Origin: an uncultured Gemmatimonadota bacterium
GTDB lineage: Bacteria; JAAXHH01
Assembly (NCBI GenBank): GCA_951812955.1
Contig: OX638340.1
Coordinates: 1,312,001 to 1,376,000 of the forward strand
Reading direction: 5' to 3'
DNA length: 64,000 bases
This document shows, one piece after another, positions 11,210-53,303 of the stretch. The translations under genes and the position numbers were made by a program. The notes beneath the pieces are model-generated. The model was not told where the DNA came from and did not search any database. It saw only the letters and a program-made list of their open reading frames with translations. Each line of letters begins with the position of its first letter. Position 1 is the stretch's first letter.

Positions 11210-11321
11210 GAGGCCGGCGATTTCCGGCCTGATTCCGGCATGACTATCGGCCTGATTCCGGCCTGATTCCCTTTAGCATCTTCCGGGTTTATTCCAATGG
11301 GCTTACCCACCTGATTCCTAT

Positions 11322-33253: not shown

Positions 33254-33820
33254 ATGGCTACACAAAGGAACTCGGACACAACCTACCTGGCCCTCCTGCG
33301 CGGAGTAAATGTGGGCGGAAAGAACGTGATCAAGATGGCGGATCTCAGGAACTGCTTCGAGGCCGAAGGCTTCCGCGACGTCGTCACCTATATCCAAAGC
33401 GGGAATGTGATCTTTCGTTCGCCTTCAACAGGGCTCAGCGTCCTGACAAACCGGATCGAGGAGATGCTGGCCGCGGCGTTTGACTATGAAGCGAGTGTCG
33501 TGTTACGCTCACGAAAGCAGATGCGGGCAGTGGTTTCCGAGGCGCCGGCGGAATTTGGAGAACGGCCGGAGACGTACCGCTACGACACCCTCTTCCTGAA
33601 GGCTCCCCTAACGGCAACTGCCGCCATGGAGTGCATCCCCGCCAGGCCCGGTGTGGATGAATCCTGGGCAGGAAATGGTGTGCTCTACTACTCGAGACGC
33701 ATCGACCAGGCCTCGCGTAGTTATCTCAGCCGTCTCGCGTCGATGCCCGTCTACCAGCGCATGACGGTCCGCAACTGGAACACGACGACCAGGTTGTTAG
33801 AGCTCATGGAAAGAGACTGA
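33254..33820 (+). CDS. DUF1697 domain protein
   Basis: The N-terminal LLRGVNVGGKNVIKMADLR signature of DUF1697. Starts 10 nt after EEP copy 2. Confidence 0.75.
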   Translation: MATQRNSDTTYLALLRGVNVGGKNVIKMADLRNCFEAEGFRDVVTYIQSGNVIFRSPSTGLSVLTNRIEEMLAAAFDYEASVVLRSRKQMRAVVSEAPAEFGERPETYRYDTLFLKAPLTATAAMECIPARPGVDESWAGNGVLYYSRRIDQASRSYLSRLASMPVYQRMTVRNWNTTTRLLELMERD

Positions 33821-33924: not shown

Positions 33925-34395
33925 TCACTCGGCGATGCACCGTCCATCCTTAAACGCCAAAACCGGTGGTGCGGGAATTGAGCAGTCGGAAACGTACCCA
34001 TACAGCTCATTCATCTCAGCTTCAAAGGCGTCATACGCTGTCAGCCGAATAGCTAGTGCCGTCGAATCGGTGGACGAGACGGAGTAAACGATGTACGCCC
34101 AGGGACCGCCGCAGGGCTTGGAGCCCAGGCCCGCGTAGCGACAGTCTGCAATCGACACGCCCTCAGCTTCGCCGACGAGCGTGTCGATTTCCCGTCGCAT
34201 CTCCATTAGCTGCGCACGGTCGCCTTCCTCGGACCGTTGGTCGCCTTCCTCGGTTCGCTGTTCGCCTTCCTCGGTCTGCTGTTCGCCTTCCTCGGTCTGC
34301 TGTTCGCCATTATTGTCATCGCCAACGACAGGATCCCGGCCGTCACAACCAAGGAGTAAAACGGAGATCCATACCGCCATAACCAGGTATCGCAT
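33925..34395 (-). CDS. hypothetical lipoprotein with an acidic heptad tandem repeat and a Cys-containing C-terminal domain
   Basis: Lipobox LLLGCDG. A 21-bp x4 repeat encodes EEGEQQT-type units (34220-34308). No recognised domain. Confidence 0.55.
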   Translation of the reverse strand: MRYLVMAVWISVLLLGCDGRDPVVGDDNNGEQQTEEGEQQTEEGEQRTEEGDQRSEEGDRAQLMEMRREIDTLVGEAEGVSIADCRYAGLGSKPCGGPWAYIVYSVSSTDSTALAIRLTAYDAFEAEMNELYGYVSDCSIPAPPVLAFKDGRCIAE

Positions 34396-34600
34396 GGTCT
34401 TTCCTTTCTGTCAGAAAAGAGTCATAGTCCCCGCTATGGAGGACGCCTGGCCTCGCTAACGGTTCCACGAGCTTGACCTCTAATTGTTCGACCTTATTCT
34501 TGCCCAACGCCCTCAGTTCTTCTTCGACGGAGAGCAAATGTAGGTTGGCGAACACTTGTTGAACATCCCTACATTTCATCTCCGTTAAAAGTCCTTCGCC

Positions 34601-34650
34601 CCAAACCCTTGACACCACCATCCGATACTCCTTACTTCCCGTTGTAAGCC
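34601..34650 (+). promoter_or_regulatory. conserved about 50-bp box upstream of MNT copy 1 (putative promoter/operator)
   Basis: The sequence is CCAAACCCTTGACACCACCATCCGATACTCCTTACTTCCCGTTGTAAGCC. It contains TTGACA-N17-TTACTT and the inverted repeat CTTAC-N8-GTAAG. It is nearly identical to 39796..39847. Confidence 0.4.
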
Positions 34651-34686
34651 CGGTTTTTGGTCGTGCCCCCAGGGATACTGGTAGCT

Positions 34687-34971
34687 ATGCACTCGATCAT
34701 CAAACAACACCGCACCGAGATCCTCGCCCTCGCCGAACTCCACGGCGTCGCCAATGTGCGCGTGTTCGGATCCATGGCAAGGGAAGATGCTGATGACTCG
34801 AGCGACGTCGATCTACTGGTGTCGCTGCCTTCTGGTAAAACAGGCCTCGCACTTGGCGCCCTGTTGATGGACGTGCAAGACCTTCTGCAACGGCGTGTGG
34901 AAGTCGTGACCGTGAAGAGTCTTCATCCTGCTCTCCGGGATAACGTGCTGAACGAGGCGCAGTCGCTATGA
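34687..34971 (+). CDS. mntA: MNT-type nucleotidyltransferase antitoxin (HepT-MntA type VII TA)
   Basis: The motif FGSMAREDADDSSDVDLLV (GS...DxD). 94 aa, with a 4-nt ATGA overlap onto the downstream HEPN gene. Confidence 0.85.
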   Translation: MHSIIKQHRTEILALAELHGVANVRVFGSMAREDADDSSDVDLLVSLPSGKTGLALGALLMDVQDLLQRRVEVVTVKSLHPALRDNVLNEAQSL

Positions 34972-35312
34972 AATCCGACGCGCGGTCCGATAGAGTGTTG
35001 CTGGAACACATCCGAGAGTGTATTGACCGTATTAGTGAATACACCGGCTGTAAGCGCTCATCGTTCTACGCCTCGCGTCTGGTTCAGGACGCAGTGGTAC
35101 GTAATCTGCAATTGCTTGCGGAGTCAACGCAACGCCTGAGTAACGCTGTTAAAGAAACCGAGACGGATATACCCTGGCGTGCCATTGCAGGATTTCGAAA
35201 CGTGCTCGTACACGGTTATCTTGAGATTGACCTCGATGCAGTTTGGAGCGTGGTTGAACAGGACCTCCCGAAGTTATCCAGGGCAATCGATCGCATGGTC
35301 CGATCCGTATGA
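34968..35312 (+). CDS. hepT: HepT (DUF86) HEPN-domain RNase toxin
   Basis: The Rx4-6H motif in FRNVLVHGY. 114 aa, in canonical position after MNT. Confidence 0.85.
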   Translation: MKSDARSDRVLLEHIRECIDRISEYTGCKRSSFYASRLVQDAVVRNLQLLAESTQRLSNAVKETETDIPWRAIAGFRNVLVHGYLEIDLDAVWSVVEQDLPKLSRAIDRMVRSV

Positions 35313-35340
35313 TCTCTGGGATATCCCGCGCGAGTCCACC

Positions 35341-36474
35341 TCATCCCTGCCTGTCCAGCCTGCCCGTCCCCATTATCCGTTCCATGTTCCCACCCAGTAT
35401 CGCCGCCATCTCGTCCTCGTCGAGGAACGGGCAGTAGCGCCTCACATAGTCGAGGCTCTGGCGGTAGGTCCAGTGCAGCAGCACGATAGGGATGTCCGTC
35501 CCCCACAGAATACGGTCGGCGCCGAAGCATTCGACCATCTTTTCAAGGACCGGCCGCACCTGGGGCATGGGATAGTCCCAGTGCGACTGCAGGAACACGG
35601 CAAAGAGGATCTGGATGTGGAAACGGGGGTGCTCGGACGGCACGGCTTCGTATACTTCATCGGGAATGTCAAACCGGTCGCGGCCGGCGAACAACCGCCA
35701 GGGGAAGCCGTGGGTCATGATCACCTCGACCTTGGGGTAATGGTCCATCCAGGCCCGCAACGAACGTAACTCTTCTATGTAGGCGGAAGGCGATCCGACC
35801 GCGCCGAGAGTGAAGAACACCGGTATGTCCAGCTCGGCCACCGCTGCCCAGAACGGGTCGAAATCCGGCCCGGTCCATTCGGGCGACAGGCCGTAGAGCG
35901 GCCGATGGAAAGGAGCGAACTGAAGGCCAGAAAGACCGTGAACGCGGATCGCCCGTTCGAGTTTCGCAATGGCGTCGTCGGTCCTCTCCGGCATCCACCA
36001 TTCGGGGACCTGGGCCAGTCCCTGGATCCGCTCCGGATAACGCCTGCAGCATGCCGCGATGTAGCCGTCATCGAGTCCCATGTACGGCGTGCGATGCAGA
36101 AGCGCCCGGTCGATGCCCGCGTAGTCCATTTCCGCCACCAGATTCTCCGCGGAGAAGGAGAAATCCTCCGTCCATGGCGGCAGGGCCTGCTTGACAAATT
36201 CCTCGCCATCTACCGTCCACTCGGCCAGGCCGTGTTTGCCGGTGCGGAAGTTCGCGTCACGCAGGCCATCGAAGCGCCACGGAAGGTCGGGGTCGTAGAG
36301 ACCCGTGGCGTCGGCCGGAGCGCGGTCCTTACGCCGCCAGACGGGTTGCTGGCGTGCCTGGGCCATAAACATCTGCAGATGACGCCGGAATTCGGCATGG
36401 TCGTCGAAGCCGCCGATATCGCGCGGGGCGGGAAAGCAATAGGCGTGTCCGTCGTAGATCATGATATCGTCCAT
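35341..36474 (-). CDS. amidohydrolase-2 family metal-dependent hydrolase
   Basis: 377-aa ORF with a WGTDIP C-terminal motif and the high GC of the core genome. Confidence 0.75.
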   Translation of the reverse strand: MDDIMIYDGHAYCFPAPRDIGGFDDHAEFRRHLQMFMAQARQQPVWRRKDRAPADATGLYDPDLPWRFDGLRDANFRTGKHGLAEWTVDGEEFVKQALPPWTEDFSFSAENLVAEMDYAGIDRALLHRTPYMGLDDGYIAACCRRYPERIQGLAQVPEWWMPERTDDAIAKLERAIRVHGLSGLQFAPFHRPLYGLSPEWTGPDFDPFWAAVAELDIPVFFTLGAVGSPSAYIEELRSLRAWMDHYPKVEVIMTHGFPWRLFAGRDRFDIPDEVYEAVPSEHPRFHIQILFAVFLQSHWDYPMPQVRPVLEKMVECFGADRILWGTDIPIVLLHWTYRQSLDYVRRYCPFLDEDEMAAILGGNMERIMGTGRLDRQG

Positions 36475-36569
36475 CTAAACGCGTTGACAGGATCATGCTT
36501 GCAGAGGTATTTTTCAGCAATTAACCATACCCGTCTTCACGCGATCTTCTTCGATCCTTAAGAATCGCA

Positions 36570-38087
36570 TTGACCGTCGGAGTGGTCTCAGTGAAAAGTA
36601 CCGAAATCCGTCCAATCTGGAATCCCCGTACCGGCATTGAAGGTCTTGACGGAGATCCCAATGAACTGAGTTCTTCCGAGATCCCCGGAATAAAAGCGAG
36701 CTGGACCGAGCAGCAGGAGCGGTTGAAGGACAAGGCCCAACTTTCTGACTTCACCGAGAAGTTGAGCCGGGAATGGGCAATAGAAACCGGTATTCTTGAG
36801 AATCTATACGAAATCGACCGTGGCGTCACGCAGACTCTCATCGAGCGGGGTTTTCAATCCGAAATTCTCAGCTACGGAACGACAAATAAGCCCCGAGAAT
36901 ACGTGATCCAACTCTTGCGAGATCAGAAGGAAGCCCTGGACGGCGTATTCGCGTTCGTCAAGAACGACCGGTCCCTCACTACGTCTTACATAAAAGAACT
37001 ACACGCGGCATTACTGCGCAACCAGCACACGACCGAGGCGCTCGACAGTCTGGGTAGAACAGTTGAAGTCCCGCTCCTCAAGGGAGACTGGAAAACCCAG
37101 CCCAACTACCCCGTCCGGGATGGCGTGACGTACAGCTACTGCCCGCCGGAACAGGTTAGTTCTGAGATGGACCGGTTGCTCGAGATGCATGAGGCGCAGG
37201 TCGAAAGCGGCGTGTCTGCCGAGGTACAGGCCGCTTGGCTGCATCATCGTTTCACCCAGATCCATCCCTTTCAAGATGGAAACGGACGCGTGGTCCGTGC
37301 GATCGCTTCACTGGTGCTCGTAAAGGAAGGACTTTTCCCGCTTGTGATAAGGAGGGACGACAGGGGCAGATACCTGGAAGCCCTCGAAGCCGCCGACCTC
37401 GGCGACCTGAACCCGCTTGTCATGCTGTTCACTGGACTGCAAAGAGATCAGTTCCTGAAGGCGACCAAGATATCTGAAGAACTACGTTTGGAAGAGGACG
37501 TGCAGGTAGTCTTGGACGGGCTGGACAGGGAAGCCCGCAGAATCGCAACGGAGAGGCTCAAGGCACACAGGGAGGTATTCGGTTTGGCCAGCGCTATCGA
37601 AAATGATCTAGAAGAACGTTTGAATACGATAGCAAAAGAAGTTTCGGGAGCACTAAATCAGGTAGCGTCCGGCGCAACTACATTCGTGCGAAGATCCGAC
37701 GAGAAAACGGATTATTTCTACAGGGCGCAGATCGTCAAGATTGCAAATGAACACATTGATTATTACGCCAATACGTCCGAATACCGATCATGGGTTTCAT
37801 TAAACATGCGATGGTCGCGTCGAGGGCAGTTGGTATTCGCGCTACACGGAATCGGCAAACCATTCAACGGTGGCCTTATCTGCGCGCCATTTCTGGAATT
37901 CAGAGATTACGACGATACCGACGAGGAGCACGGCGAGCGTCAATCAAATTCAACCCTCATTCCGGTCGCCGAGGAAGGTTTCGTTTTCTTCTACAACGAG
38001 GACAAGGATCGACTTCTCGGAAGGTTCAGGCCCTGGCGGGAAAACGTCCTCAAGATTGTCATAAAAGAACTCGCGCAAAACCTCTGA
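36570..38087 (+). CDS. Fic family protein (AMPylase-type) with an uncharacterised about 240-aa C-terminal region
   Basis: Fic core HPFQDGNGRVVR. The upstream TGILEN fits the inhibitory (S/T)xxxE(G/N) helix motif. TTG start at 36570, with GTG 36591 as an alternative. GC is about 52%. Confidence 0.85.
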   Translation: MTVGVVSVKSTEIRPIWNPRTGIEGLDGDPNELSSSEIPGIKASWTEQQERLKDKAQLSDFTEKLSREWAIETGILENLYEIDRGVTQTLIERGFQSEILSYGTTNKPREYVIQLLRDQKEALDGVFAFVKNDRSLTTSYIKELHAALLRNQHTTEALDSLGRTVEVPLLKGDWKTQPNYPVRDGVTYSYCPPEQVSSEMDRLLEMHEAQVESGVSAEVQAAWLHHRFTQIHPFQDGNGRVVRAIASLVLVKEGLFPLVIRRDDRGRYLEALEAADLGDLNPLVMLFTGLQRDQFLKATKISEELRLEEDVQVVLDGLDREARRIATERLKAHREVFGLASAIENDLEERLNTIAKEVSGALNQVASGATTFVRRSDEKTDYFYRAQIVKIANEHIDYYANTSEYRSWVSLNMRWSRRGQLVFALHGIGKPFNGGLICAPFLEFRDYDDTDEEHGERQSNSTLIPVAEEGFVFFYNEDKDRLLGRFRPWRENVLKIVIKELAQNL

Positions 38088-38140
38088 ATCAACGATTGCC
38101 GGACCACCCAGATGTGCGATGAGGTTACGAATCCACTCCG

Positions 38141-38947
38141 ATGCATTCTCTCAGCACATGTACAGTTGACCATCCCACGGACGCCGAACGTTTTCTTTTC
38201 GATACCAACGGCTACCTGGTGTTGGAGGATTTCCTCCAGGAATCCCTTGTCGATTCGCTCAATTCCGCGCTGGAGCGGACGATAGCGCGCCGGCGCGACC
38301 CCGAATTCAAACGGACGCACGAACCGGCCTTCGCCGACAGGCTCGGTAAAGCCAATGCGCGGGTCATGCACCTGCTGGCCGAAGATCCGCTCTTTCTGGA
38401 CATGCTCGACTACGAACCGATGATGGCCTACGTGCACGGTCTGTTCAACGAGATGCCCCATCTGCATTCGACTGATGCCTTCTATGAAATCGAGCAGGAG
38501 GAATACCACGGGCAGGGCTGGCATACGGACGGAATCCAGGCCGGATTCCGCAACTTCCGGCCGCACATACCGTTGTTACAGTTCAAGGTGGGGTATTACC
38601 TGAGCGACATGTCCGAACCCAACCAGGGCAACCTGAACCTCGTTCCCGGTAGCCATAAGTCCGTGGTCGAGCCAGACACGGAGGACGGCATGCCCGGCGC
38701 CGTTCAGATCTGCGGGCGTCCCGGCACGGCCGTGCTATTCCACAACGGGGTATGGCATTCGGCCGGACCGTTCACACGTCGCGGCGGCAAACGGGTAATC
38801 CTGTACTATGGGTACGAACACCCGTGGATGCTGGCTTGTGCGGAACAGTGGCGGTACGACAGGGACTTCCTGAACAACCTCACCCCGGCGCAGCGACGCT
38901 TTTTCCACGGTTTCGTCTTCGACCCGCCCGAGTATCGCTGGGGATGA
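38141..38947 (+). CDS. phytanoyl-CoA dioxygenase (PhyH) family oxygenase
   Basis: The N-terminus FDTNGYLVLEDFL, then WHTD (HxD) and a later VWHSAGP. Confidence 0.8.
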   Translation: MHSLSTCTVDHPTDAERFLFDTNGYLVLEDFLQESLVDSLNSALERTIARRRDPEFKRTHEPAFADRLGKANARVMHLLAEDPLFLDMLDYEPMMAYVHGLFNEMPHLHSTDAFYEIEQEEYHGQGWHTDGIQAGFRNFRPHIPLLQFKVGYYLSDMSEPNQGNLNLVPGSHKSVVEPDTEDGMPGAVQICGRPGTAVLFHNGVWHSAGPFTRRGGKRVILYYGYEHPWMLACAEQWRYDRDFLNNLTPAQRRFFHGFVFDPPEYRWG

Positions 38948-39088
38948 CCGGATGGGTCGGACGGACGGGATGACCGGACGATTCGAAACGAATTGCTATA
39001 AAAGTCCTGCTGGTGCCTACAGACGAAAGCCGAGTCCCGGGCAACCTGACTATCCGATTTCGTTGGCGTCCAGCGGGGATGAGCGTAA

Positions 39089-39478
39089 TCAGGCAGCCTT
39101 GCGATTCGGCAGTTTGCGCCTCATCATCACGCCTGGAAGCCGCTTCAGTCTTTCGTTGCGAGGATCGATCTCGAATCCGCCGGACTCCAGGGCCGTAACG
39201 CCAAGCAGCGGTTCCGTCCCTTCCGGGCCATACGCAATGGTCCCGCCAACGACCACGCCCTCGAATTCGATCTCGGCGACTGTTGCTTCCAGCGTGAGCT
39301 GTTTCCCGTCCGCGAGTACGTAGTCGCGACTCCCCCTCGGTTTGAGTCCAATCGCTTCGAGACGCTGCCTCGGTACGAGCGAGTCGAACGCGGCGGTATC
39401 GACAACGAACTTGCCGGTCCAGCTACGCCGTGGATCGGCGGGATTTCGGATCGTCACGTCGACATAAGTAGTCCCCAT
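39089..39478 (-). CDS. retropepsin-like (clan AA) aspartic protease, single-domain
   Basis: FVVDTAAF contains the D-T/S-A active-site triad and LLGVTALE is a flap/dimer-like motif. About 130 aa. The start at 39478 has GGAGGG upstream. Confidence 0.6.
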   Translation of the reverse strand: MGTTYVDVTIRNPADPRRSWTGKFVVDTAAFDSLVPRQRLEAIGLKPRGSRDYVLADGKQLTLEATVAEIEFEGVVVGGTIAYGPEGTEPLLGVTALESGGFEIDPRNERLKRLPGVMMRRKLPNRKAA

Positions 39479-39795
39479 ACTGAAATCCCTCCGGTGGGTA
39501 TCTCTTTCGATTGCACAAGTCAGATCTGATAATCCGTTGATCACCTTGTTAATATAGTCGTAATTCATTTGGTATTCTATTCGGTAATTTCGCTGAAGCG
39601 CACAGCGATCGGTTCGCCGATGGATTACATTATGTCGGAGGATTGTTCACCCGATTCGTCTGGAACGCTTTGGGTGGGCCGCGAAACCGCTTCACCCGGA
39701 ATGCTTCGAATGGGTCTCGGCTCCGCCGGACTGCACGGATGACGGAGTTTTGCAGAACATTTGGTCCTTCATTCCGTCGCCGTTACCGTACCCAT

Positions 39796-39847
39796 CCCAA
39801 ATCCTTGACACCGCCATCCCATTCTCCTTACTTCCCGTTGTAAGTCC
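39796..39847 (+). promoter_or_regulatory. second copy of the conserved box upstream of MNT copy 2
   Basis: The sequence is CCCAAATCCTTGACACCGCCATCCCATTCTCCTTACTTCCCGTTGTAAGTCC. It has the same TTGACA-N17-TTACTT and CTTAC-N8-GTAAG layout as 34601..34650. Confidence 0.4.
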
Positions 39848-39961
39848 TGCCGCTGTGGTCCGGTCGGATCTGTGGCGTTGGAAGGTGGGACCAATTACGT
39901 AAGTCTTTCCTTTTGTTGAACGCACGGCATCGATCAGGTCGTACCGAAGGATAAGGTAGCT

Positions 39962-40246
39962 ATGCACGCTATAATCGAACAGAACCGCGCGGAAATCCTC
40001 GCCCTTGCCGAACGCCATGGCGTCGCCGACGTGCGCGTATTCGGGTCCATGGCGAGGGGCGACGCCGACGACGCCGGCGATGTCGACCTACTGGTGTCAC
40101 TGTCGCCTGGCAAAACAGGTCTTGCACTCGGAGCGCTGTTGATGGACGTGCAGGACCTCCTGCAACGACGTGTTGAAGTCTTAACGGAGAAAAGCCTTCA
40201 TCCTGCCCTCCGTGAAAACGTGTTGCGCGAGGCGCAGCCGTTATGA
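39962..40246 (+). CDS. mntA: MNT-type nucleotidyltransferase antitoxin, copy 2 (orphan)
   Basis: About 83% identical by eye to copy 1, with the FGSMARGDADDAGDVDLLV motif. Confidence 0.85.
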   Translation: MHAIIEQNRAEILALAERHGVADVRVFGSMARGDADDAGDVDLLVSLSPGKTGLALGALLMDVQDLLQRRVEVLTEKSLHPALRENVLREAQPL

Positions 40247-40334
40247 AGTCAGACGCCTGGTCCGTAGAGTATCGCCCGAACACAACATTCCCGAATTAGC
40301 CAGGGCGATCGAGCGTATAGTTCATTCCACCTGA
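40243..40334 (+). pseudogene. hepT: hepT remnant (internal deletion of about 250 bp plus a 1-nt frameshift)
   Basis: It has the same ATGA overlap with MNT as the intact pair. The first about 44 nt align to the 5' end of intact hepT and the last about 50 nt align to its 3' end. The Rx4-6H region is absent. Read from the ATG, the frame stops after 18 codons. Confidence 0.75.
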
Positions 40335-40390
40335 TCCTTGAGAAGACCTCGCGGCCACGTGTCCTGCTGGCCGAGTGAAGGGTAATCATC

Positions 40391-40588
40391 ATGAATGTCA
40401 GTAAAGAAGAAAACACCAGACTCACTCCTTCGACAGTCAAACTCAAGCGGTTAATAGGGACCTCGCCTGCTCCTCGAATGTTGACGCCATACGAAATCAA
40501 GTTGCTGCGGCAAGCCGCGAAGGAAGTGGCCGAAGTTACGGAAGAAGTCCTCGCTGAGAAAGACAGTAGTAAGGAAGAAGGATGCTGA
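40391..40588 (+). CDS. small hypothetical ORF (65 aa) overlapping the cas3 start
   Basis: ATG ORF whose stop (GGATGCTGA) overlaps the cas3 ATG by 7 nt. The tail is charged and helical-looking. No recognised motif, and coding status is unproven. Confidence 0.35.
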   Translation: MNVSKEENTRLTPSTVKLKRLIGTSPAPRMLTPYEIKLLRQAAKEVAEVTEEVLAEKDSSKEEGC

Positions 40589-43045
40589 CCTTCGAGCGGT
40601 TTTTCTCCACAGCGTTCGGTAAAGACGTTTGTCCTTTCGCCTATCAACAGGCTCTCGCAAAGCAGGCCTGGCCAGACGCGCTCATTGCTCCGACCGGCCT
40701 TGGCAAGACCGCCGCGGTGGTGCTTGGTTGGGCCTGGAAACACGCCGTAGTCGAATCTCCAACTCCACGTCGCCTCGTTTATTGCCTGCCTATGCGCACG
40801 CTCGTCGAGCAAACCGAGCGGAATGTCAGAGAATGGCTGCGTGAACTGGGCAAAGCAAATACGGACTGGAAATCACGCCTTCCGGACCCTGAAGCCGGAG
40901 TCCATGTCCTCATGGGCGGCATGGATGAGCCGCGCTGGTTTGAAACACCTGAACGACCGGCCATCCTGATCGGAACTCAAGATATGCTGATCAGCCGCGC
41001 CCTGATGCGGGGGTACGCCATGAGCCGCTTCCGCTGGCCAGTGGACTTCGCCTTGTTGCACAACGACGCGCAGTGGGTTTTTGACGAAGTGCAATTGATG
41101 GGAGCAGGCCTGGCGACCTCTACACAACTCGAAGGTTTTCGTCGTACGTTCGGAACGGAGATCCCTTCGTGCAGTCTCTGGGTGTCAGCGACCCTTCACC
41201 CGGACTGGCTACATACGGTTGATTTCCAGCAACGTCCTACGGTGTGGCGTGTTCCATGTGATTTCCCCGACGATATACATTCATCGCAAGTCCTCAAACT
41301 GATTAACGCGTGTAAGCCAATTCAGCCGTCGTCCGTCGCGCCGATGAGTGCCAAGAAGGCCGATCTGAACGCATACGCGACAGCGTTGGCGAAGGAAACC
41401 CGGAGTCTGCACCAAGAAAACAATACGACGCTTGTGGTACTCAATACAGTCGCCCGCGCCCAAGCCGTGCATAAAGCACTTCAGAAGATGGATGTTGCGC
41501 CTGCTTGCCTTGCTCTCATCCACTCGCGGTTTCGGCCTAAAGATCGCACCCGGCAGATGGACAAGTTGCCGCAAACCGGGGAAACAAAAAAACTGATCGT
41601 AGTCGCGACGCAGGCGATTGAAGCAGGTATCGATCTATCAGCGGCGGTCCTGCTCACCGAACTCGCGCCTCCTTCGTCCCTTACCCAGCGGTTCGGTCGG
41701 GTAAATCGCTACGGTGAGTTGAACGATTCCGGTGGCGGGACGGTCCGCTGGATAGATATCATCGGAGGCGACCTCGGTGATTCGTTGGCGGCTCCGTATG
41801 AGATTAACGAACTCAAAATCGGGCGCGAGCGGATTGCCGCGTTAAAGGACGCTCGGCCCTCTAATCTCGTGCCGCCCGCATCAGACGACTGCGCCTATCG
41901 GGGTGTGATACGATCCAGGGATATGCTGGACCTATACGACACCGATCCGGATTTGACCGGCTTTGATGTCGATATCGCTCCTTACGTCCGCGATGCTGAA
42001 GATACCGATATTCGAGTTTTCTGGCGCGATTTCGACGTGCAGTCTGGACCAGAGGACCAGACTGCACCCATGCGGGACGAGCTTTGTGCGGTTCCGATTG
42101 GGCGCGCGCGTAACTGGCTTAGGGATGTCAGAAAGAAGGAAGGGCAGCGGGTATTTCGCATAGACCCGCAGGCACGAGCTAATGGGAAGGGTAGCGTTCC
42201 GACTTGGACCGCGTTCCGAGAGGAACCGTGGCCGGGTTTGGTGTTGATGGTTCATGCGAGTGCTGGGGGTTATGCACCGGACACGGGGTTTGATCAGGGT
42301 CTAAAAACAGCAGTCGAGCCTGTGAAGCTAGGAGAGGAACAGCAGACGGCAGACGAGTCGAACGACGGCGATTCCGACAGCGAGCAGAGCAGGTGCGTGG
42401 AACTGACGGATCATCTGGACCACGTGGCTTTTGAAGCCAGATACCTATGCGATGGCCTCGACGTTTGTGAAGCTTGGAAAGCCACAATCCTCCAGGCAGC
42501 GTACTGGCACGACCTCGGTAAAGCACACCCTGAGTTTCAGGCGCGAATGGTTGCAAGTAACACGGAGGCCGACCCACCACCAGAAGGGTTGCTAGCCAAG
42601 GCTCCGAAGTACGACCGCACGAAAGGACGTGCATATTTCCGGCACGAACTTGCGTCTGCACTAGCATTTCTCACACAAGCAGGCTGGGTACGCAAGGCCG
42701 ATCTTGTTGCGTACCTGATAGCCGCCCATCACGGCAAGGTACGCCTGAACTTGCGTCCCCTACCAGCCGAAAGTCGGGTAATGGGGGAGGATGGACGGCG
42801 TTTTGCTCGCGGCGTGTGGGAGGGAGACGAGATACCGTTGGTTAGTTTGGGCAATGGGGAAACATGGACAGGGGGGCCACTCGCACTATCCGTGATGGAG
42901 TTAGGCGAGCATCCGGAAACTGGGGCAAGTTGGACCGAGCGTACGCGAAATTTGCTTTCCCAGTACGGTCCTTTTCAGCTCGCTTGGTTGGAGGCACTTG
43001 TACGTATCGCCGACTGGCGGGCATCAGCAAAAGAAGAACGAGGTC

Positions 43046-43062
<17 letters not shown>
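40582..43062 (+). CDS. cas3: type I-G (I-U) Cas3 helicase-nuclease with N-terminal helicase and C-terminal HD domain
   Basis: Walker A APTGLGKT, DEAD-like FDEVQLMG, and helicase C IVVATQAIEAGIDLS. HD residues sit at the C-terminus (HLDHV, WHDLGK, FRHELAS, AAHHGK). Confidence 0.9.
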
Positions 43063-46598
<3,536 letters not shown>

Positions 46599-46605
46599 GT
46601 CTCGA

Positions 46606-48240
46606 ATGTTTGCACTTACTTTCACCTTTCCTTTGGGCCGCTATCACGCAACGCCGTGGGGGCGCCATGTCAACGAAGCCGATGTCGCTTGGCCGCCAGA
46701 GCCTTGGCGCATTCTTCGTGCGCTCGTCGCTACCTACTGGCGCAAAGGCGACCGGGTACGCTGGTCCGAGGACACACTCGCCCGTCTAGTAGACGCGCTA
46801 GCCCAGGATGCGCCGATCTATCACTTGCCCCCAGGCGTGATCCACGCACATACCCGGCATTACATGCCCACACCTAAAATGACGCTCGTCTTCGACGCCT
46901 TTGCCCACTTGTCTAAAGACGAACAGATCGTAGCGGCTTGGCCAGAACTCGAATTGGACGTCGAACTATTTGATTTGGCGGCTGATCTCGCAGAGGGGCT
47001 CGGCTACCTGGGGCGTGCCGAGAGTTGGGTTGAATGCGGAACGATAACCGACTGGAACCAAGATGTGGCAAACTGCCATCCTGTGGGCCAAAATGGGACC
47101 GCCCACGGGGAGATAGTGCGAGTGCTCACACCGCTCAGTGCTCAGGATTATATGGTGGAGCGTACGCGCCTGTTGGAGGAAGTTGACGATGCAGAGCGAG
47201 ACCGCACCGCTGCTTCCGGCAAGAGACCTCCTACCCCCAGAGCCCTTGAAAGGGCACGCAACAAAGCGTTCGGGCCGACCCTTCCTGATCGTCTGGTCGA
47301 AGCCTTGATGCTCGATACGGCCGATTACCAAAAATACCGTTGGAACCGACCGCCAGCCTCACGTGAGATTGTTTATACACGTCCGCCTCTGTCCCCTGTT
47401 CCTCGCCGTGCCCGGATTCGTGCAACAGTTGATGACCGCAGACAATTCACCGTAGCGCGCTTTCTTTTGGCCGGCCGTCCCCGACCTCGTATTGAGGATG
47501 CGGTCAAGATCGGTGAACTCATGCGGCTTGCCGCGCTTTCCAAGTTTGGTTGGGAGGACAAGAGACCCAGAGCACCGTCGGTGATATCAGGCCGGGGTTC
47601 TGATGGCCGACCATTACGCAACGGCCAGCATTCGCATGCGTTTTGGTTGCCCGAGGACGCCGATGGCGATGGCTGGATTGACCATATAACGGTTTACGCA
47701 GAGGAAGGTTTCGATGTTTCAGTGCGCGAGAAGCTGGATCGACTGACCCGTTTGTGGGTCGGTGGAGACGATTCCGGTGGAGAGGAAGGAGATAAAGAGA
47801 CCGGTCGCCAAGAGTGGCGACTGGCCTTGGAGGGCTTTGGCCGCCCGGAGGACTTTGCGGACACATCAAGGCTATTTAGCTGTTCAGATGAATGGGAAAG
47901 TGTAACACCTTTTTTGGCGTCTGGTCACTTAAAAAAGGCCGGGTATGAAGGCGAGATACATCGGCTTTGGAAGCGCAGACGAGTCACATCTGGTTCGCAT
48001 ACTGAGCCTGTACAGGTCGAAATCTTGCGCCACATCGAGATTCACGGTACTCTCCGTAGAGCAGTGCATTTTCATCGATTCCGTTCACGGGGACGAGAGA
48101 AGCAACCCGACGCGCAAGGGGCCTTGCTGCGCCTGAGTTTTAACGAGCCAGTTACAGGACCCTTAGCTCTTGGATATGCCTGCCATTTTGGTCTTGGAAT
48201 GTTCGCACGCCCAATCCTAGACGCAAAATCGGAACAATGA
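46606..48240 (+). CDS. csb2: type I-G Cas5-Cas6 fusion (Csb2)
   Basis: The N-terminus FTFPLGRYHATPWGRHVNEADVAWPPEPWRILRAL is typical of Csb2. 544 aa. Confidence 0.85.
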   Translation: MFALTFTFPLGRYHATPWGRHVNEADVAWPPEPWRILRALVATYWRKGDRVRWSEDTLARLVDALAQDAPIYHLPPGVIHAHTRHYMPTPKMTLVFDAFAHLSKDEQIVAAWPELELDVELFDLAADLAEGLGYLGRAESWVECGTITDWNQDVANCHPVGQNGTAHGEIVRVLTPLSAQDYMVERTRLLEEVDDAERDRTAASGKRPPTPRALERARNKAFGPTLPDRLVEALMLDTADYQKYRWNRPPASREIVYTRPPLSPVPRRARIRATVDDRRQFTVARFLLAGRPRPRIEDAVKIGELMRLAALSKFGWEDKRPRAPSVISGRGSDGRPLRNGQHSHAFWLPEDADGDGWIDHITVYAEEGFDVSVREKLDRLTRLWVGGDDSGGEEGDKETGRQEWRLALEGFGRPEDFADTSRLFSCSDEWESVTPFLASGHLKKAGYEGEIHRLWKRRRVTSGSHTEPVQVEILRHIEIHGTLRRAVHFHRFRSRGREKQPDAQGALLRLSFNEPVTGPLALGYACHFGLGMFARPILDAKSEQ

Positions 48241-48444
48241 AACGCAGCATTTACAATGACACCTCAGTCATTGGAGTTTGTTATAGAGTTGTTTCAAGGA
48301 AGCTATAACTGTCGATCGATTCTTACATAATCTCGATGTTGTTCATACAGCCTTAAGTCGAGACGTATCCCTGGACCCACGACAGCTAAAACGTACGAAC
48401 ATTTTGCAGAACGAGTAGCCGCGAATACTTCAGCGACTCACCAC

Positions 48445-50157
48445 ATGAACCACATCCACCAACTCACGCTACCAATACCTCCGCCCCCAGTCGACGCGAA
48501 TACGCCATTGGTCCCAGCGCGCATGGTCAACGAATGGGTCTATTGCCCGCGACTGGCCTACCTGGAATGGGTTGAAGGAGAGTGGGCGGAGACGGGAGAC
48601 ACCGCCGAGGGACGGCGTACACACGTAAGGGTCGACGAAGGTGGCGGCCGTCTGCCCGGACCGGAAGAACTGGATGATGAGATGGCCCGCGCCCGGTCCG
48701 TCACGCTTTCGTCGGATCGTCTCGGCGTAATCGCCAAGATAGACGTCGTGGAAGCCGAAGAAGGAATCGTCACGCCCGTGGATTTCAAGAAAGGCAAGCG
48801 TCCCCATGTCGCCACTGGCGCCTACGAGCCCGAACGCGTCCAGATCTGCACGCAGGCCATGATCCTGGAGGACAATGGTTACAGAGTGGAGCGCGGTATG
48901 CTCTGGTACGCCGGGTCGCGTGAGCGCGTCCCGGTGATGCTTGACGATGAACTTCGATCCCTGACCCTGGCGGCAATCAGAGAATTGCGCGTCGCCGCGG
49001 CTGATGGCCGTCGGCCACCGCCTCTGGAAAACAGCCCGAAGTGCCCCCGCTGTGCCCTGGCGGGGATCTGTCTGCCCGACGAAACCAACCTGTTCCGCAA
49101 AGGGACTGCACCACGCCCGCTGAACCCATCGGATGATCCGGCCCTGCCGCTCTACGTACAGGAACCGGGGGCGCGACTGCGAAAGAGCGGTGAGCGCTTG
49201 GTGGTGGAAATCAAGGAAGAATCCGTAGAGGTACCCATAATCGACGTTTCCCAGGTCGCTCTGTTCGGCCCCGTCTCGGTGACCACACCGGCTCTGCACG
49301 CGCTGATGAACGCGGAGATTCCGGTATCGTGGTTTTCCACGGGAGGCTGGTTCCTCGGCCATACAGTAGGAACAGGGCATGGAAACGTGGCCGTTCGCGA
49401 AGCGCAATACCGCGTAGCCTTCGATAAAGGCGCTCGCCTTGCCTTCGCGCGCGATCTCGTGGCGGCTAAGGCGCGTAACGCCCGTACGATGTTGCGTCGC
49501 AACTGGCGCGTCAATATGGACGCGGAAATCAGGGATGAAGCCCTAGTCCGGCTCAGGGGAGTCGTGCGCCGCATCTCCCGCGCCACGGACGAAAGCCAAC
49601 TGCTGGGCCTGGAAGGCGAGGCCGCCGCAGTGTATTTCAACTGCTTCGAGCACATGCTTGCTAAGGATCTGGACGGCGGCGCGACGGGGTTCTCCTTCAC
49701 CAAGCGCAATCGGCGGCCTCCCACGGATCCGGTGAACGCGCTCCTGTCGCTGGCCTACGCTTTGTTGACGCGGGTATTCACTACGACCATCTCGGCGACG
49801 GGGCTCGACCCCTACATGGGCCTCTACCACCATACGCGCCACGGGCGCCCGGCGCTGTCCCTCGATCTAATGGAACCGTTCAGACCTATTGTCGCCGACT
49901 CCTGCGTTATTCAAGCCATCAACAACGGCGAAGTAAAGCTGGCCGATTTCGTGTTCAACGGGGCTGCTTGTTCGCTGAAGCCTGCTGGTCGCAAGTCCTT
50001 CATCGCCGCGTTCGAGCGGCGCATGGAGCAGGAGACCACACATCCGCTTTTCGGCTATCGCGTTTCCATGCGGCGACTTATCGAGGTACAGTCCCGATTG
50101 CTCGCCCGGCATTTTCAGGGAGAGATCGTCTCTTACCCTCATTATCTTCCCCGGTAG
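48445..50157 (+). CDS. cas1: Cas4-Cas1 fusion integrase/nuclease
   Basis: The N-terminal Cas4 part has YCPRLAYLEW and the Cys cluster CPRCALAGICLPDE. The C-terminal Cas1 part has PLYVQEPGARLRK...PTDPVNALLSLAY...GLYH. Confidence 0.9.
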   Translation: MNHIHQLTLPIPPPPVDANTPLVPARMVNEWVYCPRLAYLEWVEGEWAETGDTAEGRRTHVRVDEGGGRLPGPEELDDEMARARSVTLSSDRLGVIAKIDVVEAEEGIVTPVDFKKGKRPHVATGAYEPERVQICTQAMILEDNGYRVERGMLWYAGSRERVPVMLDDELRSLTLAAIRELRVAAADGRRPPPLENSPKCPRCALAGICLPDETNLFRKGTAPRPLNPSDDPALPLYVQEPGARLRKSGERLVVEIKEESVEVPIIDVSQVALFGPVSVTTPALHALMNAEIPVSWFSTGGWFLGHTVGTGHGNVAVREAQYRVAFDKGARLAFARDLVAAKARNARTMLRRNWRVNMDAEIRDEALVRLRGVVRRISRATDESQLLGLEGEAAAVYFNCFEHMLAKDLDGGATGFSFTKRNRRPPTDPVNALLSLAYALLTRVFTTTISATGLDPYMGLYHHTRHGRPALSLDLMEPFRPIVADSCVIQAINNGEVKLADFVFNGAACSLKPAGRKSFIAAFERRMEQETTHPLFGYRVSMRRLIEVQSRLLARHFQGEIVSYPHYLPR

Positions 50158-50162
50158 CGACT

Positions 50163-50456
50163 ATGGCCAACGAACGTCTCTACATCGTCGCCTACGACAT
50201 ATCCGAGCCAAAGCGATGGCGGCGCGTGTACAAGCTGATGAAAGGCTATGGGCACTGGTTGCAGTTGTCGATTTTCCAGTGCAGGCTCACGGCCCGGCGA
50301 CGCGCGGAAATGACCGCTCGTCTGGAGGAATCGATCGATCTGTCGGAGGACCACATTCTGATCGTGGACATGGGTCCCGCGGACAAAGTGGATCCATTGG
50401 TAGAAAGCCTGGGCAAGGCATATGAAGCGCCGACTCGAAAAGCCACCGTCGTGTAG
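50163..50456 (+). CDS. cas2: Cas2 endoribonuclease
   Basis: LYIVAYDISEPKRWRRVYKLMKGYGHWLQLSIFQC is a typical Cas2 fold sequence. 97 aa. Confidence 0.9.
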   Translation: MANERLYIVAYDISEPKRWRRVYKLMKGYGHWLQLSIFQCRLTARRRAEMTARLEESIDLSEDHILIVDMGPADKVDPLVESLGKAYEAPTRKATVV

Positions 50457-50665
50457 CCGTGCCTTTGCCGGGTCCTCCGCGAACGCTCCGGTGGAAGGGA
50501 AATGCCGGGCAGCGCTCGCGTCCTGGTATTTGTTTGTTCTGCATGGAGTTACGAGGCATTGTAACTGATTTCGGGGAGGGCGATTTGAATGTCCGTGAGA
50601 TTTTAGCAGCAGTGCTCGCAAAAGGCCTGACAAGCCTAAGTCTGCCAAAGAGTTGCTAAGGAACT
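50457..50665 (+). promoter_or_regulatory. CRISPR leader
   Basis: Non-coding 209 bp between cas2 and the first repeat. Repeat degeneration at the far end of the array supports this polarity. Confidence 0.6.
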
Positions 50666-53281
50666 ATTTCCGGGGCTGCGCAGCCCCGGCCTCATTGAAG
50701 CGCCGCCATATCGATCCGGATAGAAGGTTGTCCGTTCGATTTCCGGGGCTGCGCAGCCCCGGCCTCATTGAAGCACCATATGCCGGCGCGGTGATTGGGT
50801 ATTTGCGGCACGATTTCCGGGGCTGCGCAGCCCCGGCCTCATTGAAGCATCCGTCATCATAAAACCCCCGTAAATGGCCATAGGGATTTCCGGGGCTGCG
50901 CAGCCCCGGCCTCATTGAAGCCGTCGTCGCGATGGCGGTGTTCGGTGGCAACCTGTGATTTCCGGGGCTGCGCAGCCCCGGCCTCATTGAAGCCACCAGA
51001 ATACCCATGCGGCCGATAACGAGGTGCTGCTTATTTCCGGGGCTGCGCAGCCCCGGCCTCATTGAAGCCGATCCTTCCGCGAAGTGTCCGGCCTGCACCG
51101 CTCCATTTCCGGGGCTGCGCAGCCCCGGCCTCATTGAAGCATGAGTTGACGCTCCGAGATACCCAGCAGCGTCGCGAGATTTCCGGGGCTGCGCAGCCCC
51201 GGCCTCATTGAAGCCGGAAGATGTTGCTCCCCTGGCCGTCGGTGAAGAAGTTATTTCCGGGGCTGCGCAGCCCCGGCCTCATTGAAGCCGGAAGATGTTG
51301 CTCCCCTGGCCGTCGGTGAAGAAGTTATTTCCGGGGCTGCGCAGCCCCGGCCTCATTGAAGCGAGAAGATCTCCCCGGATAACGTGGACGACCCCACCGG
51401 CATTTCCGGGGCTGCGCAGCCCCGGCCTCATTGAAGCCGGTTGGCCTCCGGGTCCGGCTCGGTTTCGTGCGGTTGATTTCCGGGGCTGCGCAGCCCCGGC
51501 CTCATTGAAGCTTGGAAGCCATGATGGCCTTGGTGCCCAGGGCGAGCGCCATTTCCGGGGCTGCGCAGCCCCGGCCTCATTGAAGCTAGGCCTCCTCGCT
51601 GGCGAATCCCATCTTGTACCACTATTTCCGGGGCTGCGCAGCCCCGGCCTCATTGAAGCTCGTACACGTGGGCGGTGGTCAGCACCACCTTGGAACCGGA
51701 TTTCCGGGGCTGCGCAGCCCCGGCCTCATTGAAGCGTCGGTTTCGTCCTCGGTGTCGCGGTGACGACGCTCTATTTCCGGGGCTGCGCAGCCCCGGCCTC
51801 ATTGAAGCATCAAACACACCCTTCAAGCGTAAACATAGGCCCTGGATTTCCGGGGCTGCGCAGCCCCGGCCTCATTGAAGCCCATCAGTGTGGTCGACTG
51901 CTGCCTGCGTGTGCTGGAGAAATTTCCGGGGCTGCGCAGCCCCGGCCTCATTGAAGCCCATCAGTGTGGTCGACTGCTGCCTGCGTGTGCTGGAGAAATT
52001 TCCGGGGCTGCGCAGCCCCGGCCTCATTGAAGCATGCACATCTCGAAGTCACAGGACCAGACACAGGTGACGATTTCCGGGGCTGCGCAGCCCCGGCCTC
52101 ATTGAAGCCACGGAAGGCAGCCAGGGTCGCACCGCTGGCACCCAGATTTCCGGGGCTGCGCAGCCCCGGCCTCATTGAAGCCAAGCAATCGAACGCAAGC
52201 ACAAGCGGACGCTCGACCATTTCCGGGGCTGCGCAGCCCCGGCCTCATTGAAGCTAAGGGTATTGTCCAGGACGATGACCTGAATGAATATATTTCCGGG
52301 GCTGCGCAGCCCCGGCCTCATTGAAGCCTGTGCAAAACGCGCGGTACTTGAAATTGGCCCGTGTCATTTCCGGGGCTGCGCAGCCCCGGCCTCATTGAAG
52401 CGTGATTGATCAATTTCGAGATTAACCGTTATTTCCTCCATTTCCGGGGCTGCGCAGCCCCGGCCTCATTGAAGCAGGAACACGTGGAAGAGGTAGGAGC
52501 AGACGCGAAACCATTTCCGGGGCTGCGCAGCCCCGGCCTCATTGAAGCGAAGCTCCTGTTGAGTCTGTGAACGACTGGACGGGTTAATTTCCGGGGCTGC
52601 GCAGCCCCGGCCTCATTGAAGCGATGCAATCAGAAACCTCCTTCATCGTCGCATCCTGATATTTCCGGGGCTGCGCAGCCCCGGCCTCATTGAAGCGATT
52701 CATCGTTGGCGTTGTCGTCCACCTCCTCGGCGAGGTATTTCCGGGGCTGCGCAGCCCCGGCCTCATTGAAGCCAAGTTGACAGACATAGGAATCCAGCCT
52801 TACGCGTCCACATTTCCGGGGCTGCGCAGCCCCGGCCTCATTGAAGCTCTGAAAAAGACCTGTTGCTCCACCCCATCGAGGACGTATTTCCGGGGCTGCG
52901 CAGCCCCGGCCTCATTGAAGCGCCTTGTCGCGGATAGCCCTTGCCTGCTCCTCCAAAGCCATTTCCGGGGCTGCGCAGCCCCGGCCTCATTGAAGCCTCC
53001 AACACCAGCAACAGCACGGCAGGGTCCCTGGGCATTTCCGGGCTGCGCAGCCCCGGCCTCATTGAAGCGAATCTCCCTCCAGCGGGTTGCAGTCCTTCAG
53101 GTCCTGGGTTTCCGGGGCCGCACGGCCCCGGCCTCATTGAAGCGAGATCCCCCCGGACCCTGGTAAGGCGTCGGCGGGCAGTGTTTCCGGGGCCGCTCGG
53201 CCCCGGCCTCATTGAAGCTCGGATCCTAACTACGACCTGTTCATTATCAATTGCGTTTCCGGGCTGCGCGGCGAGGATCGT
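50666..53281 (+). CRISPR. CRISPR array: 35 repeats of 36 nt plus one degenerate terminal repeat, and 35 spacers of 36-40 nt
   Basis: The repeat is ATTTCCGGGGCTGCGCAGCCCCGGCCTCATTGAAGC, with an internal 20-nt perfect palindrome and an ATTGAAGC 3' end. I located every repeat by hand: first at 50666-50701, last intact at 53183-53218, degenerate remnant from 53255. Confidence 0.98.
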
Positions 53282-53282
53282 G

Positions 53283-53303
53283 GGCCCTGATCCAGGGCTT
53301 TTA
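53283..53303 (+). terminator. weak hairpin plus T-run after the array
   Basis: GCCCTG-ATC-CAGGGC followed by TTTT. The stem is short. Confidence 0.3.

Follow-up and report, generated by a model that had tools for sequence, protein, structure and literature searches.

In Shewanella oneidensis, the HepT/MntA pair (SO_3166/SO_3165; PF01934/PF01909) forms a toxin–antitoxin (TA) system in which the minimal nucleotidyltransferase (MNT) MntA carries a GSX10DXD motif, the toxin HepT carries an RX4HXY motif, and MntA tri-AMPylates Y104 (PMC7641770). The MNT antitoxin of this bacterium also binds palindromes in its own promoter (PMC4621449). AMPylation of the RX4HXY tyrosine with neutralisation of the toxin has been reported only in S. 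oneidensis, Thermococcus cleftensis and Aphanizomenon flos-aquae (PMC7641770, PMC11586414). The MNTs of S. oneidensis and A. flos-aquae need their C-terminal alpha4 helix; an MNT of Legionella pneumophila without this helix still AMPylates and modulates its HEPN partner (PMC11586414). Here we describe a related locus in an uncultured Gemmatimonadota bacterium (assembly GCA_951812955.1), within a stretch of 64,000 nucleotides of contig OX638340.1 (positions 1,312,001 to 1,376,000) that is called the window throughout. Two homologous cassettes lie 5.3 kb apart in this window, and the second of them, at 39796-40334 and hereafter cassette 2, is very probably the decayed remnant of a resident type VII TA cassette (MntA/HepT, class I HEPN-MNT). 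Judged from its sequence, it is a degenerate member of the known HepT/MntA family, made up of an orphan antitoxin gene (MNT2) and a toxin pseudogene (hepT2). The likeness to the S. oneidensis system lies in the antitoxin-first bicistronic layout with overlapping stop and start codons, in the GSX10DXD motif of the MNT, and in the RX4HXY motif of the intact partners, which aligns with R97/H102/Y104; on the other hand, the toxin gene of the second window copy has been cut to 92 nt, and the window MNT is a 94-residue minimal form whose nearest relative of solved structure comes from Thermus thermophilus (1WOT). The L. pneumophila precedent would bear on these 94-residue MNTs if they too lack alpha4, although that system differs in being an intact pair with its own oligomer-dependent regulation. 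From the conservation of motifs, AMPylation of the RX4HXY tyrosine by the window MNTs would be expected.

MNT2 (39962-40246, plus strand) encodes an intact 94-residue MNT of the MntA antitoxin type, which matches Pfam NTP_transf_2 (PF01909) with 49.6 bits against a cutoff of 21, with Polbeta matched too, and carries the GSX10DXD motif as G28-S29-MARGDADDAG-D40-V-D42. The match to 1WOT has an E value of 1.5e-18; a point against the overall explanation given here is that a sequence search of solved structures at E <= 0.001 gave no match of the 94-residue MNTs to S. oneidensis MntA. MNT2 overlaps hepT2 by an ATGA at 40243-40246 (ATG 40243-40245, TGA 40244-40246). All that is left of the toxin gene is 92 nt (40243-40334, plus strand), namely a 5' remnant of codons 1-14 (40243-40283), which aligns to the start of the intact paralogue hepT1 of cassette 1 and is continuous with the MNT alignment, and a 3' remnant of codons 99-114 with the original TGA (40284-40334; ..NIPELARAIERIVHST and stop in the ancestral frame). 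The 84 codons in between, 15-98 or exactly 252 nt, are missing in frame, and with them the RX4HXY motif (R77-x4-H82-x-Y84 of HepT1). A second lesion is the deletion of 1 nt between 40264 and 40265, which shifts the frame; therefore the retained ATG at 40243 opens an ORF (open reading frame) of only 18 codons, with its stop TAG at 40297-40299, and the tail can be read as ..EHNIPELARAIERIVHST and stop in the ancestral frame only. The initial annotation, made from the window alone, had described an MNT gene about 83% identical to that of the intact pair (78/94 in protein; 81% in nucleotides), a retained ATGA overlap, a partner reduced to the two ends of hepT and the loss of the HEPN Rx4-6H region, and all of these elements stand; it had missed the frameshift, as well as the recurrence of hepT inactivation in the clade that is described below.

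The assignment of so short a remnant to hepT could be questioned, since BLAST-short misses the 3' tail by itself, owing to its shortness and divergence, and returned only self matches for the 5' and 3' remnants in the window. The pairwise alignment proposed in the initial annotation settles the relationship: the tail at 40284-40334 aligns without gaps and in codon register to hepT1 codons 99-114, and ends at the same TGA. When the 63-nt tail was slid ungapped over the whole window on both strands (127,876 positions), the best non-self position was 35262, with 40/63 identical, the next best reaching 31 against a background mean of 15.6 (standard deviation 3.4), so that the match has a z of ~7 and is unique within the window. 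The tail is also 84-88% identical to the tails of orthologous cassettes, with which it has the stop codon and the downstream spacer in common, and its identity to the hepT tail of locus L038 (44/50) is higher than that to hepT1. No HEPN ORF, full-length or otherwise, occurs in any frame of the remnant, tblastn of the window found none besides HepT1, and a 40-residue ORF spanning the remnant has no Pfam match; an adjacent HEPN gene (PF01934) with RX4HXY is found in cassette 1 and in the orthologues of cassette 2, but not in cassette 2 itself. The same 252-nt deletion and frameshift, together with an identical MNT2 protein, are present in contigs of two other metagenomes, ERR3887488 (L023/L034) and ERR3887490 (L024/L033), and the remnants of L033/L034 differ from that of the window at 2 positions. 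Because these two assemblies are independent and come from other samples, the lesions of hepT2 are not an artefact; they are real and heritable, and the explanation by misassembly or by chance similarity is refuted.

Deletions between short direct repeats, by replication slippage or by other RecA-independent routes, belong to general bacterial genetics, and the loss of the hepT2 core fits them closely. In L038, where hepT is intact, the breakpoints carry perfect 6-bp repeats, CTC-GAACAC-ATT at codons 13-14 and GTA-GAACAC-GAC at codons 97-98 (in the contexts CTCGAACACATT and GTAGAACACGAC, respectively), spaced by 252 nt, that is, by the length of the deletion. The window junction has a single GAACAC (40278-40283, plus strand), the sole remaining copy, followed by AAC ATT CCC where L038 reads GAC CTT CCC. 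The repeats at both ends, the one copy left and the equality of length and spacing leave nothing unusual in comparison with the general case. The undeleted allele of L038 is an orthologue (91% nucleotide identity in the MNT) and not the direct ancestor; in L003 and L037, the two breakpoint sites read GAGCAC and GAACAC. It is almost certain that a 252-bp in-frame deletion between GAACAC repeats, by replication slippage or RecA-independent (illegitimate) recombination, removed hepT2 codons 15-98 with the catalytic and AMPylation region. A microhomology-mediated deletion had already been suggested in the initial annotation from GAACA at both endpoints of the intact copy 1; these repeats do exist (35004-35008 and 35256-35260, within the 6-mers GAACAC and GAACAG), but copy 1 is not the progenitor of copy 2, and the argument is valid only because true orthologues show the repeats as well. 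The 6-bp repeat of L038 is stronger evidence than the 5-nt GAACA of the paralogue.

An alternative route to the same junction is suggested by L037, which has tandem cassettes, a and b, with a paralogue of an aspartic protease (Asp-protease) gene between them and cassette b directly upstream of the CRISPR-associated genes orf65-cas3. Unequal recombination of such tandem cassettes could have fused the upstream hepT, at its codon 14, with the downstream one, at codon 99, removing the intervening Asp-protease gene and a second MNT. The window indeed has no Asp-protease paralogue downstream, and a few tail characters (ATTC, AGCCAGGG) are common to the window and cassette b of L037. Nevertheless, both the tail and the spacer of 56 nt before orf65 resemble the single intact cassette of L038 most (44/50 and 47/55), and not cassette b of L037 (33/42 and 37/55); L038 has the gene order of the window with an intact hepT, so one intragenic step suffices; and the tandem route would need the same GAACAC microhomology anyway, in more steps. 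Recombination between tandem cassettes is accordingly a very unlikely origin; given the resemblance of tail and spacer to L038, the most parsimonious history is one intragenic event that started from a state like that of L038. As to cassette b of L037 itself (11250-11670), its leader and the 5' half of its MNT are gone, the 3' half of the MNT is fused to the hepT tail, and its upstream box is kept, where an 8-nt duplication creates TTGACA-18-TATTTT.

The intact paralogous pair, cassette 1, consists of an upstream box (34600-34651, 52 nt), the antitoxin gene MNT1 (34687-34971; PF01909, 52.4 bits) and the gene of HepT1 (34968-35312), a predicted HEPN RNase toxin of 114 residues (PF01934, HepT-like, 97.7 bits), all on the plus strand and with the ATGA overlap at 34968-34971. 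Alignment of HepT1 to S. oneidensis HepT (5YEP_B, 6M6U_B) places R77, H82 and Y84 of its R77-x4-H82-x-Y84 motif on R97, H102 and Y104, which are the residues of RNase activity and the AMPylated tyrosine. Copy 1 is an old paralogue and neither the template nor the progenitor of the deletion, because synonymous divergence (dS) is ~0.9 between copies 1 and 2 as against ~0.28 between MNT2 and its orthologue in L003. Cassette 1 forms a segment of ~900 nt (window 34467-35369) together with a short ORF on the minus strand, immediately upstream of its box (34343-34621; annotated as a gene of 64-75 residues in L033, L034 and L040). L038 and L039 lack this segment at the corresponding intergenic position, and their sequence resumes there after ..AACGGTTCC. 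The edges of the segment showed neither repeats nor mobility genes, and MNT1 and HepT1 gave no match when looked up exactly in the assembly index. A larger segmental duplication was also considered, given a direct-repeat pair at 33567/38841 with a spacing of 5274 nt; BLAST of 35400-41000 against the window matched the cassette and the box only, and the pair was put down to chance.

The intact state of cassette 2 has been found in relatives. A scan for MNT2 in one genome per species gave 22 loci, and further lineages came from exact-protein look-ups. Full-length HepT of 114 residues with RX4HXY occurs in four of these relatives (L003, L030, L037 and L038), which bears out the earlier claim of a toxin loss with retention of an intact antitoxin, and supplies the full-length second pair for which a survey had been proposed. 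L003 (OZ241920.1) shares synteny with the window at a nucleotide identity of 85-88%, with the amidohydrolase, PhyH, cassette and large LRR protein genes in common; in its cassette, box and long leader precede an MNT with 94% identity to MNT2 and the full-length HepT. In L037, an MNT 98% identical to MNT2 and an intact HepT are followed by the Asp-protease gene and then by cas3; L038 has the gene order of the window (Asp-protease gene, an MNT 96% identical to MNT2, intact HepT, orf65, cas3); and L030 has an MNT 94% identical to MNT2 beside an intact HepT. An intact cassette thus lies upstream of a type I-G-like cas operon in two relatives, L038 and, with its cassette a, L037. No JGI metagenome contig matched a pattern specific for the junction, and a pattern for the box found one JGI contig (L040) and no viral contig, hence no sign of a phage-borne cassette. 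The retropepsin-like Asp-protease gene lies upstream of the cassette in the window (39089-39568, minus strand), and likewise in L038 and L039; a paralogue ~81-83% identical lies downstream of the cassette in L030 and L037, with a fragment there in L003, and the upstream copy is reduced to a 133-nt fragment in L035 and L037. At an earlier stage, the two Asp-protease paralogues may have enclosed the cassette as direct repeats.

Loss of the toxin with conservation of the antitoxin is not restricted to the window lineage, and at least three further independent inactivations of hepT, each with the MNT ORF intact, are seen in close relatives. In L035/L036, hepT codon 11 is joined out of frame to ..RAISGFRNVLVHGY.., with a junction overlap of only 2 nt (TG). 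In L039, hepT diverges inside the motif (GFRNVL-LDGRL..), where a different cas module abuts, and the catalytic histidine and tyrosine are lost. The third case, L040 (JGI Ga0209021_1009599, 2200-2544), is an orthologue of cassette 1, in which hepT1 codon 16 has changed from CGA to TGA; the nonsense codon comes directly after the GAACAC site, and MNT1 is intact with one amino-acid difference. Similar states are found among 22 more distant loci: nine have an intact MNT and an intact HepT, one has a full-length HepT with the catalytic arginine replaced by proline, five have a truncated or frameshifted hepT, three or four have no detectable hepT, two (L017 and L022) have both genes degraded, and one lies at a contig edge, so that about half of the 19 distant loci with an intact MNT have no intact HepT. 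Toxin-first decay is therefore the rule in this MNT–HepT subfamily. It would also be the sole order of loss that a cell survives, since in S. oneidensis it is lethal to lose the antitoxin while the toxin is present, and it agrees both with this lethality and with the abundance of orphan antitoxins in marine metagenome-assembled genomes (PMC4621449, PMC12654330).

Whether MNT2 has been kept by selection or has simply not yet decayed was addressed by parsimony over five orthologues, a test whose power depends on the share of the branch that lies after the deletion. Along the window lineage, MNT2 (281 nt) has acquired four changes, all of them synonymous at third positions and none amino-acid-changing; on the same branch, the 5' remnant of hepT2 (42 nt) has acquired 10 changes and a 1-nt indel, and the 3' tail (50 nt) three. 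The remnant, with 13 substitutions and the indel in 92 nt, has thus decayed about 10 times faster than MNT2 (Fisher p = 6e-6), and within MNT2 the difference between synonymous and nonsynonymous sites is significant as well (p = 0.004). Under neutrality, 11.6, 5.8 or 2.9 nonsynonymous changes would be expected in MNT2 if the whole, half or a quarter of the branch post-dates the deletion, and none is observed. The dN/dS ratio of MNT2 against its L003 orthologue is 0.10, similar to the values for the neighbouring PhyH (0.10) and amidohydrolase (0.135) genes. Between the window and L033, both of which bear the deletion, MNT2 shows three differences, all synonymous, and singleton changes amount to 11 synonymous and 6 nonsynonymous in three orphan MNTs, a proportion similar to the 25 and 11 in four paired MNTs. 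These patterns make it likely that MNT2 has been under purifying selection after the loss of its toxin, a case of moderate strength, and MNT2 may accordingly be read, with the same reserve, as a still active nucleotidyltransferase kept by selection.

In an alternative explanation, MNT2 is a functionless relic, the toxin having been lost so recently that conservation reflects time and not selection. It draws on the small absolute divergence of MNT2, with only those four lineage-specific changes, on the near identity of the cassette block between two deletion-bearing lineages, and on the degradation of both genes in L017 and L022. Several observations weigh in the same direction and against selection: the test rests on the five-orthologue parsimony and on the timing of the deletion within the branch, P rising to ~0.05 if under a quarter of the branch post-dates the deletion; the cas3-proximal cassette of L037 did lose half of its MNT along with most of hepT; and the comparison of MNT2 between the window and L033 is low in power, because the surrounding 1-kb block is 98-100% identical. 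This block (39734-40733), whose flanks (PhyH, the Asp-protease gene and the remainder of cas3) have 84-95% identity to L033, suggests a recent recombinational transfer or a sweep of the deletion-bearing allele between strains; it comprises the box, MNT2, the remnant, orf65 and the 5' end of cas3. The relic explanation nevertheless remains unlikely: while the remnant gained its 13 substitutions and indel, MNT2 gained no nonsynonymous change against some 6-12 expected; three independent orphan MNTs in the clade keep the full 94-residue ORF with GSX10DXD beside a dead or absent hepT; and so do 8-9 of the 19 more distant loci. The 5' remnant is in fact more diverged than the neutral prediction, and 4 of its 10 changes (40249, 40263, 40266 and 40268) have the hepT1 state against all five orthologues (binomial P ~0.01-0.05), which is suggestive, though only that, of a short gene-conversion patch from cassette 1.

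If MNT2 is maintained by selection, its likeliest role would be to act in trans, neutralising the paralogous HepT1 5 kb upstream, or incoming HepT homologues, by AMPylating Tyr84, and in addition it may repress the promoter box that both cassettes share. The initial annotation had already raised, with a hedge, cross-neutralisation of HepT1 or an anti-addiction role, an idea with which purifying selection on MNT2 would be compatible. By analogy with the characterised systems, cross-neutralisation of HepT1 is chemically plausible, because the type VII antitoxin is an enzyme acting on the tyrosine of RX4HXY and HepT1 68-97 (including RNVLVHGY) is nearly identical to the same region of the intact HepT2 orthologues, with only A74S, plus V79I in L038; the two MNTs of the window, for their part, are 83% identical in protein. 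Moreover, copy 1 is found together with the deleted copy 2 in the window and in L033 and L034, all three with intact MNT1 and HepT1, and is not found in L003, L030, L037 and L038, where hepT2 is kept. Three points tell against giving this association much weight. The co-occurrence counts as a single evolutionary event, because window, L033 and L034 form one clade; L035/L036 and L039 inactivated hepT independently, lack copy 1 at the syntenic site and still have an intact MNT; and in L040 it is hepT1 itself that carries the nonsense codon, beside an intact MNT1. Retention of the MNT therefore does not generally need an intact neighbouring HepT, and cross-neutralisation as the reason why MNT2 has been retained is a tentative proposal, somewhat more doubtful than probable on the sequences at hand.

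Another function could be sought in the box that precedes both cassettes. In cassette 2, this putative promoter/operator (39796-39847, plus strand; function assigned tentatively) reads TTGACA, 17 nt, TTACTT and then CTTAC-N8-GTAAG. It is 90% identical to the box at 34600-34651, above the 81% of the coding region, and TTGACAC and CTCCTTACTTC.CGTTGTAA are nearly invariant across the boxes of nine cassettes. The leader that connects the box to the MNT2 start codon (39848-39961, plus strand) is ~72 nt longer than that of cassette 1, is found in the orthologues L003, L030 and L038 (83-90% identity) and not in copy 1; a search of 39000-41000 against Rfam gave no match. The function of the box is put forward with caution, because a sigma-70 consensus scan did not score the window box as a promoter, its second hexamer being poor. 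Should the box nevertheless drive orf65-cas3 by read-through, MNT2 might be mainly a regulator that represses or tunes it and has been co-opted for CRISPR-Cas control; in one version of this explanation, the pair started out as an addiction module that stabilised the cas island. All relatives with CRISPR-Cas have a box-(MNT)-(hepT) cassette ahead of the cas operon and oriented like it, with a 56-nt spacer between the two in the window and in L038 and a gene overlap in L039, and the box kept by the L037 remnant scores as TTGACA-18-TATTTT. No terminator-like site was detected between MNT2 and cas3 in the window, nor on the plus strand between cassette and cas genes in L037 and L038, and autoregulation of this kind has a precedent in the promoter binding by the S. 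oneidensis MNT (PMC4621449). Against co-option stand the missing promoter call for the window box, an inverted repeat of just 4-5 bp with a variable final base, the presence of the cassette without any CRISPR-Cas in L003, L030 and L035, and the DNA binding that a short 1WOT-like MNT would have to exert, which is putative here. A mainly regulatory role is accordingly quite improbable, and protection in trans is still the better candidate for a role of MNT2.

The genes downstream of the remnant deserve a description of their own. The CRISPR-Cas island starts with orf65 (40391-40588, plus strand), a 65-codon ORF between the remnant and cas3 that adds to the initial annotation and whose stop overlaps the cas3 start (ATGCTGA). 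This ORF is preserved at 54-97% amino-acid identity in L033, L034, L037 and L038, with a similar stretch inside the cas region of L039; it has no Pfam match, carries a conserved LTPYEIxLLR motif, and possibly encodes an uncharacterised small cas-associated protein. The first cas gene is cas3 (40582-43062, plus strand), encoding a helicase with a C-terminal HD domain (Pfam DEAD, Cas3-like_C_2 and Cas3_HD). The order from the cassette onwards is orf65, cas3, an 884-residue protein, Cas_GSU0053, a 544-residue protein, a Cas4-Cas1 fusion and an array (~50666-52997) of ~32 repeats of 36-37 nt; the 884- and 544-residue proteins have no Pfam match. The Cas3 with its C-terminal HD, the Cas7 of the GSU0053 family, the Cas4-Cas1 fusion and the adjacent array point to a locus of type I-G/I-U-like organisation. 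L003 and L035 lack the whole island (40370-53288) at the syntenic position, the LRR protein gene coming directly after the cassette there, and L038 and L039 have different effector genes at the same spot, with orf65 recognisable in both and cas4-cas1 in L038. The site thus looks like a hotspot for the gain, loss and exchange of cas modules, and the cassette sits in a high-turnover defence/TA island.

A TA module directly beside a type I cas operon recalls CreTA, which Li and colleagues are said to have described in 2021 as a CRISPR-regulated RNA toxin/antitoxin that is repressed by Cascade and safeguards type I cas genes. The window module differs in being a protein pair, in occurring without CRISPR-Cas in the three relatives named above, and in the repeated loss of its toxin. 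It could still be imagined that the cassette serves an exchangeable type I-G cas module as its conserved left anchor and as a promoter upstream, and that, after repeated losses of the toxin, selection has kept the catalytic antitoxin as an immunity factor or as a box repressor; this broader proposal is improbable on present evidence. If its immunity branch were true, MNT2 would give trans-acting protection against HepT-bearing cassettes circulating in the community; if the repressor branch were true, a TA promoter and its antitoxin would have been domesticated for CRISPR-Cas control.

Turnover has also been observed elsewhere in the window. The slot between the amidohydrolase and PhyH genes (window 36570-38087) holds a 505-residue Fic protein in the window, L035 and L037, DUF4258 and DUF2283 in L033 (4564-5057), L034 and L040, HicB-like and DUF2283 in L003 (4462-4906), and several of those modules together with a methyltransferase in L038 (2851-6004). 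An in-frame 21-nt tandem repeat of 4.3 copies (34218-34308) lies in a minus-strand ORF (33925-34395), where it gives an EEGEQQT-like peptide repeat, and 72-nt LRR repeat units occupy 55232-55852 in the gene of a 1383-residue Big_2/LRR/Peptidase_M66-like protein.

The decay of toxin genes in chromosomal TA modules is well known, orphan antitoxins are frequent, and any textbook covers deletions between short repeats; cassette 2 is a clear example of this common gene decay and not a new kind of system. It resembles orphan antitoxins and anti-addiction modules, a concept reportedly developed by Saavedra De Bast and colleagues in 2008 for chromosomal ccd, in that an intact and apparently constrained antitoxin persists without its cognate toxin in a genome with a homologous complete pair. 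It differs from these in that what remains of the toxin can be seen along with the exact mechanism of the deletion and the ancestral state before it, and in that the antitoxin of the window is a type VII enzyme and not a binding protein, so that protection in trans would be catalytic. In the marine survey, few type VII orphans were found and their origin was not dissected (PMC12654330), and the literature searched holds no published test of cross-talk between MntA and a non-cognate HepT. For a type VII system, with its enzymatic antitoxin, the natural series described here is unusually complete, comprising the intact ancestral state, the exact breakpoint repeats and constrained antitoxins, together with no fewer than four toxin-inactivating lesions that arose independently within a narrow clade (the loss of 84 codons with a frameshift, a second deletion that is out of frame, a replaced 3' end inside RX4H and, in the paralogue, a nonsense codon). 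It offers a concrete case for asking what makes orphan antitoxins persist, and whether an MntA enzyme can act on HepT paralogues other than its cognate toxin.

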